A program made the translations under genes and the position numbers. This document shows, piece after piece, positions 20,433-40,330 of a stretch of DNA of 64,000 nt. This stretch comes from Eledone cirrhosa (lineage: Eukaryota), in assembly GCA_964016885.1 (NCBI GenBank), contig OZ024741.1:319362001-319426000 (forward strand), given 5' to 3'. A model generated the notes under the pieces. That model made no database searches. It was not told where the DNA came from and saw only the letters and a program-made list of their open reading frames with translations. Position 1 is the first letter of the stretch, and each line of letters starts with the position of its first letter.

Positions 20433-20626
20433 AACGAAGGAAGTGTAGTAATAAACCAGGTGGACCATAACGCACCAGAGTACTCAATACTTAGGGTAGT
20501 AGAGTGGGTAATAGGAAAATGTTCAAGACCCCAATGGCAGAGCTCAAGCCGTTCCGACGGCTATTTCTGGATTAAATTAATCGAAACGGCTTGAGCTCTG
20601 CCGTCGGGGTCTTGAACATTTTCCTA
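20433..20626. mobile_element. Family A mini fold-back (PLE copy-2 pLTR end + tail) in (TA)n
   Basis: Homologous to 59230-59370; inverted arm 20581-20626. Confidence 0.88.
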
Positions 20627-21674
20627 TATATATATATATATTGGGAACTCACAGTTTAGACTAGCAAGACCATTATTTAGCTTAGTACTCGAAATTTAAG
20701 AAAGTAGAGCAGATTTTTGCCAAAAGTCATTCCGGCTATGATAACACCGTTCGTATTTGTTTTAAAGATACAATGTTTTTATGGTCATATTGTCCAATAT
20801 GATCATAATTTGGTAGGATTTGAGAGAGATTTGGCTGCTATCTCGAGTAGGTCTCGTTGTTTCGGTGTTGTCGTTGGATGAAGTGTGTTACGAAAATAGC
20901 AACGTTTAATACTACTGAATATACTCTATGTCTCAACTCACAGACACCACCACCAACACCACCACCACCACCACTACCACTACCACCACTACTACTACTA
21001 CTACTAAACACGCAAAAGTGCAGCTGAGTAATAGTTTTCTTATCCAATTAACTGTTTGGCTGTTTGGCTGTCTGATTGCTTGTTTATCTCTCCTACTTCC
21101 TACCCCACCCCACCAAACATAGCATTATATGCACAAACATTGATATGCGTGTAACTATATATATATAATATATATATATATATATATATATATACATAAT
21201 ATATATATATATATATATATATATATATATATATATATATATATATATATATATATTTATAGATATATATGTATATGTATAAGTATATATATATATATAT
21301 ATATATATATATATATATATATATATATATATATATATCAATCTTTAGAAGGGCCGTAAAGTGGCCTTAAAGTGCTGAACTGCCATACACAACCCCACCC
21401 TCCCAAAGTCTATATCATGCCTATGTCGCAGCTATACGAATTTTTATAGATTAGCTTCGTTAAACTAGATTTATATACTTATTAATATTACCCTCTGCTT
21501 AGTACAACCCCAAAGTACATACAGGAAACTACGCATCGAATGCTGACTTTGGTGAACCAACAGTAACTTGACGTTACAATCCTTAAATTATATATATATA
21601 TATATATATATATATATATATATATATATATAGAGAGAGAGAGAGAGAGATAGAGATAGAGATAGATAGTTAGA

Positions 21675-21817
21675 TAGGAAAAGAGTCAGGACCCCGACGG
21701 CTGAGCTCCGGCCGTTTCGACATCTAGCTGTCGAAACGGCCGGAGCTCAGCCGTTGGGGTCCTGACTCTTTTCCTATTACCCACTCTACTACTCCAAGTA
21801 TCGAGTACTCTGGTGCG
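21675..21817. mobile_element. Family A mini fold-back
   Basis: Near-perfect ~100-nt hairpin 21675-21776 plus truncated tail. Confidence 0.88.
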
Positions 21818-21849
21818 AAGCTAATCCATAATAATTCGTATAGATCTGA

Positions 21850-22135
21850 CACTGGCTTTCATTTCCTACATCATCATTCTCTTGTCATATAGTATTTGGT
21901 ATTCCCCTTTTCCTACCCCCTTCCACATTCATTTCCATCACTCATTTCACCCAGTTACTTTCACCCTTTCCCTACATATGACCCAATCATCTCATTCCAG
22001 TTTTCTTCACAACATCCATTACTGGCTCTATTCCCACCATCCTCTGCAATTCATTATTTGTTATCCTCACTCTGAGCAATATTCCACTCATCCATATTAC
22101 CTTTCTCATTTTTCTTCTTTCCATATGCATACCTT
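21850..22135 (-). mobile_element. Decayed RTE-type LINE 3' fragment
   Basis: MRKVIWMSGILLRVRITNNELQRMVGIEPVMDVVKK..R*LGHM. Confidence 0.65.
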
Positions 22136-22720
22136 TGCAATTGTTGAAGCTTAGGCTCATTTTCTGTGACAAACTGTGCCAGATCATCTAAATTGTAGGA
22201 AGTTTCTCGGAGAATTTCATGGCACAAATTTTGTTGTTGTCTGTTGGTAGATGGCAATCCATACTCATTTAGATCTTTCCCTCCCAAATGATGGAGTTTA
22301 TTCTCAAGCAGTATCAAAGTCTCATTGAGAATATAGTAATTTAATTGAAGGTCAAAGTTTGGATTTTCCATTTGAGCACGATTGAGAACATCCTTTCTTA
22401 GTTCATGCTTGTGATTCTCCCATAGCTGTTTAGGATGGGACAGGTCACATGTGTGAAGCATTATTGCAAATAAATTCTTAAGCTGAGTGGGAGAACTTGA
22501 AACGGCAGCTTCAGTTAACGTGTCATCCCAGTGAGAATCATTTTCTAACAGTCCTTGTCTGTGACACGATTCACGATAAGTTTCACATAGTTGACCATAA
22601 ACCATTCTCAGATCTTGAAAAGACTTTGGTCCTCTAACCACATGAAGTAATGTGCGAAGAAAATAGCATTCAAAGTTGTTTGAATGTATAGTATAGACCC
22701 TTCCAAGTGCACAATCTTTC
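22136..22720 (-). mobile_element. Helitron Rep/helicase internal fragment
   Basis: VRGPKSFQDLR..TYRESC..GLLENDSHWDDTLTEAA..QLKNLFAIML..HPKQLWENHK, the conserved Rep-helicase linker of Helitrons. Confidence 0.88.
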
Positions 22721-22916
22721 TTAATTCCAGGCCATCCTTCAACATCTCTCCCTCTTGCCCACCTCTTCCAAATCTTATTAGTTTGAATCTATATATAGAA
22801 GTTTGGGACTTGTTGGTAGAGAAATGTTGCAGCAAATGAGTTCTGATTACAAAGTTTAAAGAAAGCAGTAAGTGTTGTTTCTGTAGGAGTTTGCATTTAC
22901 TGCATAACCTGCTGGT

Positions 22917-38693: not shown

Positions 38694-38741
38694 ACCGTCG
38701 AAACGGCTTGAGCTCTGCCGTCGGGGTCATACTTTTTCCTA
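38694..38741 (+). mobile_element. Family A single arm ending TTCCTA(TA)n
   Basis: ccgtcgaaacggcttgagctctgccgtcggggtc. Confidence 0.8.
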
Positions 38742-39129
38742 TATATATATATATATATATATATATATATATATATATATATATATATATATATTTACAC
38801 ACACACACACACACACACACACACATGTACACACATTCTAATATATTCTAGTCCAAATTATCTTTTCCTCCTTTCTATTTCTTACACTTTTCGGCTAAGC
38901 TACTTCGCACCGCGTTTCTATCTCTTCCTTTTCAGTTGAGGTATTTTTTGTCGTTTCTCTTTGTCTTTACTTGTGTAATTCTGCGAAAGCACAGTTTGGG
39001 GGTCGGGGTGGGGCATTCCATATGCATTGGAATAAATAGTATTGATTAACCAAAACTATAAGGATTTCGAGAGGTTGACTGAAGAGAAGGGAGTGTTCAT
39101 TTTCCCGTTGTCTTCATCATATATATATA

Positions 39130-39507
39130 TCTTTATATATATAAAAGCGAGGATGTGTGTGTGTCTGTGTACAACTTGGCATGCATAAGGCTTTCACAAT
39201 TACCAACTGAATTTGACCAAATTGTCTGTGCACGTTGCACAGGTCGATAAGATTGTTACATCATAAACATTTTTCAAATCAACCCACGTTGAGCAATAAA
39301 CAATCGATATCAAAATTATCGGTAGAAAAATTGACAATCCTTATAAAAAAGGGAGATAACATTTTCACCAAATATATTCGTTTGCATTAATTATTGAAGA
39401 CTTCTGCTTATTTTGACAGGTTGGGGACAAATAATGTTCTTTTACTTCCTAGCTGTATATTCTTAGCATAATTTCAAACCCCGAGCAACGCCGGGTAAAT
39501 CTCCTAG
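39130..39507 (+). mobile_element. Complete non-autonomous Helitron
   Basis: A|TC 5' end (tctttatatatataaaag), subterminal hairpin cccgagcaacgccggg, 3' CTAG|T. Confidence 0.88.
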
Positions 39508-39521
39508 TATATATATATATA

Positions 39522-39652
39522 TAGGAAAAGAGCTACGACCTCGACGGCTGAGCTCCGGCCGTTTCGATAGCTAATACCCACTCTACTACCCTAAGTATCG
39601 AGTACTCTGGTGTGTTATGGTCCTCCTGGTTTCTTACCACACCTTCTTTGTT
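39522..39652. mobile_element. Family A element, one arm deleted, full tail
   Basis: Inverted arm 39522-39572 joined to tail 39575-39652. Confidence 0.82.
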
Positions 39653-40176
39653 ATATATATATATATATATATATAGTGTGTATGTGTGTGTGTGTGTATA
39701 CATGTGTGTGTGTATTAGAATGTATGTTTGTATGTGTATATATATTTATGTATATATATATATATATATATATATATATATATATATATATATATATATA
39801 TATACACATATACGTACACACACACAGTTGCAATACGTCACTTTTAAGTTGGCACATGTTCAAATGATCGGTGTAAACAACATGGATGTCATATTATACC
39901 GGAACAATTATGTGTCACAATATTGGAGTAAACATAAACAGGCACACACATACATGCGCACTCATATACTGACTGACACACTGTCTGACACTCACAGATA
40001 CAGACACACACAGACAAGCATGCATATATATATATATATATATATATATATATATATATATATATATATATATATATATTTGCTTAGTCATTTTTGGATT
40101 TCCTGGTACTATACCTCTTACTATTATATATATATGTCAGATTGGAGGTGGTAAAACCCAGTTAGAGCATTACTCA

Positions 40177-40330
40177 TCTGAGTACTCGATAACTGGGGTA
40201 GTAGAGTGGGTAATATGAAAAAATTCAGGACCCCAACGGCTGAGCTCTGGGCGTGTTTTAACAGCTTGATCAGTTCGGATCTAGCTGTTGAAATGACAGG
40301 AGCTCAGCCGTCGGGGTCATGAATTTTTTC
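40177..40330. mobile_element. Family A mini fold-back, diverged
   Basis: ggaccccaacggctgagctct.. / ..ggagctcagccgtcggggtc. Confidence 0.78.

Follow-up and report, generated by a model that had tools for sequence, protein, structure and literature searches.

Among Penelope-like elements, those of the Hydra clade (Craig et al. 2021, PMC8557442) are the closest described counterparts of the element analysed here, which lies in a stretch of 64,000 nucleotides (nt) of Eledone cirrhosa (contig OZ024741.1, positions 319,362,001 to 319,426,000; hereafter the window) together with eight miniature pieces (minis) of the same repeat family, family A. According to the passages on them in that paper, Hydra-clade elements share with this parent element their protein motifs, a hammerhead ribozyme, a (TA)n target, an inverted and 5'-truncated partner copy and a tail on one side only. 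The parent differs from them in its unit of 3,531 bp (mostly <3 kb in the Hydra clade), in having RWR in place of RWK and in its tail of 78 nt as against 30-40 nt, and the same passages describe no dominant 140-nt class, no start within the ribozyme and no G copied from a cap. On the biochemical side, the parts of the report on Poseidon_Ac that deal with priming (Frangieh et al. 2024, PMC11167929) describe a purified Penelope protein that cuts and extends both strands of an AT-rich target from two internal starts bounding the tail, and a product that became shorter when the template was shortened at its 5' end. The layout of the E. cirrhosa copies agrees with this behaviour. Unlike in Poseidon_Ac, as far as those parts go, both starts share a 2-3 nt TA pairing with the target, run-off at a putatively capped end would dominate, and a class of ends at the ribozyme cut is present.

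Parallels are also found in the relevant passages on other systems. In L1 twin priming (PMC11702581, PMC4859970), an inversion arises from two primers, an extra G is seen at full-length 5' junctions, and end-joining proceeds with microhomology or filler. There, however, the first priming is at the 3' poly(A) and the inverted part is not duplicated, whereas here both primers appear to be internal and near the 5' end, so that the arms usually duplicate into a hairpin. The Penelope element of D. virilis (PMC2377424) likewise has a promoter and an initiator-like motif inside its pseudo-long terminal repeat (pLTR), but transcription there begins ahead of an intron that, on the map, terminates where the ribozyme starts at its 5' end, so its RNA holds the whole ribozyme, unlike what is proposed here. 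Head-to-head inverted pLTRs with palindromic junctions are described in Adineta vaga (PMC3846280). Finally, non-LTR retrozymes (bioRxiv 10.64898/2026.07.22.740005) resemble the minis in being short, devoid of open reading frames (ORFs), related to hammerheads and derived from Penelope pLTRs. Retrozymes are tandem whole ribozymes thought to replicate as circles, whereas minis are head-to-head half-ribozymes that appear to be made afresh; as minis contain no head-to-tail whole hammerheads, their assignment to the non-LTR retrozymes was rejected.

The inverted pLTR with its tail, the promoter in the pLTR, internal starts, the cap-derived G and twin priming are therefore already known. For a start inside the hammerhead with dominant cap-G run-off products we found no report in Penelope elements, in a search that did not extend to subscription papers, Repbase and supplements. 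The origin of the Penelope inverted repeats and tail, as well as the role of the hammerhead, are stated as open in the passages of PMC8557442 and PMC11167929 that touch on them.

We believe, with a probability of about three in four, that the minis are head-to-head run-off copies made from two internal starts to the capped RNA 5' end of a Hydra-clade Penelope-like element, a reading drawn from sequence comparison. RNA polymerase II would start at the A of T(T/C)AGT in loop II of the hammerhead, so that the mRNA would carry only the 3' half of the ribozyme and could not cut itself there in cis. The protein would nick both strands of (TA)n, and one cDNA would be primed at 79 nt and the other at 1 nt from the tail end, with TA pairing over 2-3 nt in either case. 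Both would be extended for at most about 140 nt to the cap, which would be copied as C, and end-joining with 0-15 nt of trimming or filler would unite them head-to-head. Long copies would come from uncut read-through RNA, and RNA cut by the whole ribozyme would yield a second class of ends. The further proposal, that the element has its promoter inside its own hammerhead and that the ribozyme determines whether a dead 140-nt hairpin or a long copy results, we would accept no more readily than reject. If it were true, the capped mRNA would hold a half-ribozyme and both starts within its first 140 nt, and read-through RNA would hold a whole ribozyme and lose its 3' starts when cut; the hairpins would be a fossil record, at nucleotide level, of priming from two starts on two strands, of the cap and of germ-line ribozyme cutting, and it would be explained why Penelope elements generally have an inverted pLTR and a tail on one side. 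The model offers predictions at the level of single bases: a capped start at d139 (139 nt from the tail end), priming on two strands and another RNA end where the ribozyme cuts.

Arm ends and the base preceding them

Positions in the element are given as d, the number of nt from the tail end (window position 59230 is d1), or as e, the number of nt upstream of the G of the GAAA box (d121), so that e18 is d139. The whole genome contains 47,214 exact matches to a 16-mer of the tail, at least 12,515 to short head-to-head hairpins, and 60,943 to GAAA with the 3' strand of stem II, 6,095 of them also with the 5' strand of this stem. To map arm ends, we used 100 copies, the first among 5,411 matches to a 34-mer tail motif of the young subfamily; the 5' end was ignored in this choice, all 100 were mapped, and this sample, like the others, lies within the first 70 Mb of contig C1. 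Mapping to the young subfamily replaced an extension against the best of many references, whose peak at e22 was false and due to overshoot at the junction. Partner arms shorter than d98 were not detectable in this mapping. Lengths of the 11 long copies were measured again with BLAST (one is censored at the edge of its locus), and one copy with a 2-nt duplication (L322) was set by hand to d139 and excluded from the count of junction bases.

Tail arms of the young copies ended at d76-90 in 9 cases, at d91-97 in 2, at d98 in 3, at d99-121 in 8, at d122-129 in 10, at d133-139 in 52 and at d140-143 in 5, with none at d130-132 or d144-231 and the 11 long copies ending beyond. Thus, d122 is reached by 78 arms, of which 67 stop within d122-143; the rate of breaks in long copies would predict 1.3. 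The break rate was 0.153 per nt in d133-139 versus 0.00075 per nt past d143. When all 162 arm ends of short young copies were considered, 115 lay in d133-143 (loop II) and 14 in the 3' strand of stem II (d122-129); the mode was d139 (31 ends), with a ceiling at d139-143. A set of mixed age (n=100, rougher mapping) had the same shape, with 8 long copies, 64 ends in e1-36 and 28 shorter ones. These results show that the clustering of ends is real and genome-wide, and that its pattern is a ceiling with trimming below it. The original prediction had placed the breaks inside stem II: the clustering at the ribozyme held, and the location was inexact, as most ends are in loop II, past stem II. It had also held that the break zone is non-random and that minis are stereotyped products of reverse transcription, naming a smooth exponential beforehand as the outcome that would speak against it; such a curve does not fit the young-set ends, and both ideas are supported. 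In Logan contigs we found many different head-to-head joints and, in the last 140 nt, a summed depth that was 20-30-fold higher. As starts are not visible in contigs and the runs possibly come from the assembly's own sample, they are not independent support.

The ceiling is likely to be the capped 5' end of an RNA, as judged from the base that precedes it. In short arms genome-wide, the base before the A of d139 was G in 4,112 cases and A in 786 (4,898 purines), whereas in 39 long copies a script found T in 32, C in 6, A in 1 and G in none; inspection by eye of the first 100 long copies listed disclosed no G either. Among 245 arms that are joined directly to pure (TA)n, the first 100 (by eye) had G in 63, the templated T in 26, A in 6 and C in 5, and solo arms, too, begin with G-AGTCC. 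At young junctions whose base the partner arm does not account for, G was present at 12 of 16 d139 ends versus 18 of 54 others (Fisher p=0.004). In 190 hairpins the extra base was on both arms, with 0-12 nt of filler in between, and the CGGCCG subfamily, whose loop II is different, had it as well (23 G versus 7 A in 30 loci). The relevant passages of PMC11702581 and PMC4859970 interpret the additional G found at junctions of full-length L1 and SVA insertions as a copied cap. The sequence T-x-A-G/T-T at e20-16 was nearly invariant in the 39 long copies, even though loop II varies, and the loop II motif resembles the Drosophila initiator, given as TCAKTY in the part of PMC1538597 that defines it.

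Two arms and a second class of ends

An inverted partner was present in 75 of the 89 short young copies; 70 of the 75 partners ended at d79 and 72 adjoined TA, and 97 of the 100 tail ends adjoined TA repeats, the (TA)n target. A 4+4-bp hairpin with a 2-nt bulge lies a few nt after both d79 and d1. The partner was longer than the tail arm in 30 of the 75 copies, equal in 18 and shorter in 27; it exceeded the tail arm by at least 5 nt in 19, which is not obtainable by copying the tail cDNA back on itself without a later deletion. Nine tail arms stopped at d78-90, and in six of these copies the partner reached d134 or further, as expected if the second cDNA were blocked at the first primer. Junctions were distinct in 65 of the 75 copies, which argues that minis are made afresh and not from a shared founder structure; in addition, 72 of the 89 short copies agreed fully with the active unit in the part upstream of the anchor. 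Long copies, 59230-62831 among them, are also laid out as two arms, but their breaks are scattered.

Some copies depart from this plan. Arms with different subfamily letters at several sites were seen in L284 (near 3955) and L115 (near 4958), possible products of two templates or of later conversion. In L316 (C1:63669361-63677361), two arms stand before the sense arm d136-1, one that extends from d123 to 63 nt beyond d1 and then an inverted one, probably reflecting a template jump from the RNA 5' end that made a partial tandem.

A further class of ends lies at the predicted ribozyme cut, between window positions 59328 and 59327 (d99/d98). Both arms ended exactly at d98 in 3 of the 100 young copies (Poisson p=0.009, tail arms). 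There were 247 very short hairpins, and 32 of the 49 distinct ones listed had both arms at d96-99, one at the cut (by eye), 12 of these 32 being also readable as d99 with overlap. Cut-site hairpins were mostly blunt or had one A/T between the arms. This suggests that the ribozyme may cut templates in vivo and that the cut ends mostly lack the extra G. The GAGCTC palindrome of the stem III loop is the centre of 10 of the 49 very short hairpins listed (by eye), so it is also a joining point; in active lineages it may be conserved for the formation of RNA dimers.

Nothing points to a role of the minis beyond that of dead-end products; action as trans substrates or as sources of dsRNA, put forward in the original prediction, would be hypothetical. 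Strand-polarised A-to-G changes were absent from the 32-nt core of 169 hairpins, in a search whose pattern would miss heavily edited copies, and base changes in minis were mostly C>T and G>A (169/331). A mass of at least 12,515 hairpins that look like miniature inverted-repeat transposable elements (MITEs) can thus be dead-end products of retrotransposition, which matters for repeat annotation.

Contrary evidence and competing explanations

Several observations weigh against the capped run-off model, starting with the restriction of our samples to 70 Mb of one contig. Exact d139 ends are only 31 of 162; most arm ends fall 1-6 nt short of it, those at d133 (17), d138 (17) and d135 (13) being common, so that trimming or several starts must be assumed. 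The full TCAKTY is matched only by long copies with TCAGT, a minority of 6 in 39; the downstream promoter element had no match at +28-32 (by eye), and a TATA-like box as a general promoter element was rejected because the CGGCCG subfamily lacks it. The loop II motif could be conserved for tertiary contacts of the ribozyme instead, and the extra G could be a C-biased terminal addition made at any RNA end: G was also found at the 18 of 54 young junctions mentioned above that are not at d139, and at 3 of 6 at d98 in the young set (about 4 of 29 in a larger d98 listing, by eye), and about one fifth of the genome-wide G cases can be read as part of the opposite arm. For the anole element, the pertinent passages of PMC11167929 report that ribozyme cutting is dispensable in vitro and that no RNA reads end at the cut. 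Finally, both arms were of the same subfamily type in 114 of 117 hairpins (36 expected at random), indicating one RNA or sister RNAs, which fits fold-back as well as twin priming.

Fold-back would leave the ends at the capped start and form the hairpin by snap-back of the cDNA or a switch onto its own cDNA, with d79 as the preferred joining point with (TA)n. Besides the shared subfamily type, with mixed-subfamily chimeras amounting to at most 3 candidates in 117 hairpins, it would account for the overlap of 1-6 nt at 24 of 74 young junctions and for some fillers that copy the arms, and the passages on rotifer elements in PMC3846280 favour self-priming on an antisense template. We nevertheless regard it as unlikely: the partner is the longer arm in 30 of 75 copies and by at least 5 nt in 19, non-overlapping inversions exist (39522 in the window; L269, L290 and L280 elsewhere), the extra base stands on both arms around the filler, flanking DNA was captured between the arms of the 28444 copy, and a bulged hairpin follows each of d79 and d1. 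A stall or template switch of the reverse transcriptase at the folded ribozyme, the mechanism of the original prediction, appears quite improbable. The break rate in d122-132 (0.012 per nt) is indeed about twice that of d76-121 (0.0055 per nt), and a fold stabilised by protein could exceed its predicted strength; however, the ends pile up 4-14 nt beyond the 3' strand of stem II and then meet a ceiling, with 115 of 162 in loop II and only 14 in that strand, the only hairpin there (-1.9 kcal/mol) is weaker than stem III (-4.9), which is passed, no ends occur in d144-231, where the remaining ribozyme lies, and stalling does not explain why a single base in both subfamilies carries a non-templated G.

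Processing of the RNA at d139, by a nuclease cut with recapping or by a C-adding enzyme and with no promoter involved, would produce the same ceiling, and G is not rare at other junctions. We hold it to be highly improbable, given that the end falls on the A of an initiator-like motif, that Penelope promoters inside the pLTR are described (PMC2377424, in the part on D. virilis) and that the arms retain the AG at d139-138, on account of which these two positions were also rejected as a splice acceptor. The other proposal of the original prediction, later trimming of long palindromes by deletion, seems practically untenable, as does MITE-like amplification of a few master hairpins. Small central losses are common and GAGCTC occupies the centre of some very short hairpins, but the fixed ceiling and the extra G, which trimming does not explain, contradict both as a main cause; a hairpin of 232/221 nt without spacer survives (L289), solo arms begin with the same G-AGTCC, most short copies match the active unit upstream of the anchor (72/89), and a MITE or master-copy family was rejected on the 65 distinct junctions in 75 young copies.

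The parent element and the copies in the window

By its motifs and (TA)n target, the parent is an endonuclease-positive (EN+) Penelope-like element of the Hydra clade, whose marks are given in the pertinent part of Craig et al. (2021, PMC8557442) as a C-terminal GIY-YIG, DKT, a CxCx5C linker, CxxC and CxH. Its single ORF of 717 aa encodes a reverse transcriptase (RT; YRDD at 348) followed by GIY-YIG (VIY...YIG at 591), with DKT at 117, CNCPDRSIC at 572 (the CxCx5C linker), CNLC at 670 (CxxC) and CKH at 698 (CxH). RWR stands at residue 37, where the Hydra clade has RWK, and GxKF/Y is absent. Homologues of the ORF numbered 2,049 at E<=1e-20, with PF01541 on the top match; Pfam and PDB searches with the ORF gave no direct match. 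Its first ATG is 93 nt past d1, and by eye a 13-codon upstream reading frame was seen in the tail, from unit d37 to +4, before the main ATG. The full unit of 3,531 bp was found in tandem in L031-L032 (C1:437198050-437214410), where about 4.6 near-identical units have an inverted d282-1 arm at the head and a d79 end at the far end, the tail being on the inverted arm. In another young copy (L002, 2443-2946), segments of d221-46 are repeated, suggesting repeated template jumps or a small circular template.

In long copies, the ribozyme has the UUGAGAA (U3-A8 variant), GAAA and GUC boxes, stems I-III fold, and stem II changes in step between subfamilies (by eye). The U3-A8 variant is known from Schistosoma, as stated in the passage on it in PMC4209133. 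An Rfam scan of the window returned no hammerhead among the best 150 of 220 matches, only microRNA matches driven by microsatellites and below threshold. About 53-62 nt upstream of the putative start, at window 59421-59430 on the minus strand (d201-192), CCATATATGG or CCATATAAGG is present in all 13 aligned long copies. Both fit the CArG box, CC(A/T)6GG; the site overlaps the outer strand of stem I, so RNA structure is an alternative reason for its conservation.

Table 1. Features of the parent element and of the miniature copies in the window (positions are those of the window; d and e as defined in the text)
Feature	Position	Strand or arms	Remarks
Young 5'-truncated Penelope-like copy	59230..62093	-	tail arm d2864-1; RT-GIY-YIG reading frame 62092-60542
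Inverted partner arm	62093..62831	+	d817-79, 739 nt; two-arm layout as in minis
78-nt tail	59230..59308	-	bounded by two putative reverse-transcription starts, d1 (59230) and d79 (59308); bulged hairpin 59302-59279
Complete type I hammerhead	59324..59415	-	U3-A8 core variant, long stem/loop II, 6-bp stem III with GAGCTC loop
Initiator-like T(T/C)AGTC motif, loop II	59365..59370	-	A at 59368 (d139, e18), putative capped transcription start
Mini hairpin	20433..20627	tail arm minus 20433-20580, to e24-25; short arm plus 20581-20627, from e2	in (TA)n
Mini hairpin, CGGCCG subfamily	21675..21817	short arm minus; tail arm plus from 21722 (e11)	tail cut at d39; centre CTAG
Mini hairpin, CGGCCG subfamily	25892..26076	both arms to ~e13, overlapping at GATC palindrome	right arm lost GAGCTC
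Mini hairpin	28444..28704	tail arm minus 28444-28581 (e17); short arm plus from 28644 (e18, putative +1)	
Mini hairpin	37229..37397	tail arm plus from 37260 (e17); short arm minus (e14)	short arm cut at d106, without GUC
Solo short arm	38690..38742	+	e10 to d79; partner absent, no fold-back
Inversion without duplication	39522..39652	short arm minus (d79 to e8); tail-only arm plus (d82-1)	twin-priming-type product
Older mini hairpin, CGGCCG-type subfamily	40135..40330	short arm plus from 40272 (e18, putative +1)	

The eight miniature copies of the window were compared with this element over their 14 arms, 13 of which were measured by script and one, the diverged tail arm of the 40177 copy, by eye (about e12). 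The presence of family A at all eight places, the loss of the UUGAGAA half from every copy (neither TTGAGAA nor its reverse complement was found) and a homology end no more than about 25 nt upstream of GAAA (14 of 14 arms) were all as originally described; the longest arm per copy, in window order, reached e24-25, 11, 13, 18, 17, 10, 8 and 18. The 5' core box and the 5' strands of stems I and II are missing from all eight. The copies had been described as fold-backs, which applies to six of them and not to 38694, a solo arm, or 39522, an inversion in which nothing is duplicated. GAAA, stem III, GUC and the 3' side of stem I are retained as had been stated, except in the left arm of 37229, which is devoid of GUC and the 3' side of stem I. 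GAGCTC is kept in 13 of the 14 arms, the single exception announced being the right arm of 25892; as long copies also have it, its retention in minis is inheritance and not evidence of selection on them.

In the 28444 copy, a filler of 61 nt (28582-28642) separates the arms, 60 nt of which copy the flank 28328-28387, and a non-templated G at 28643 directly precedes d139; none of the Logan contig pieces listed spans this filler. Unrelated to family A, a 14-bp tandem array and a tandem repeat of about 495 bp are present at window 32490-33400 and 22948-24513, respectively.

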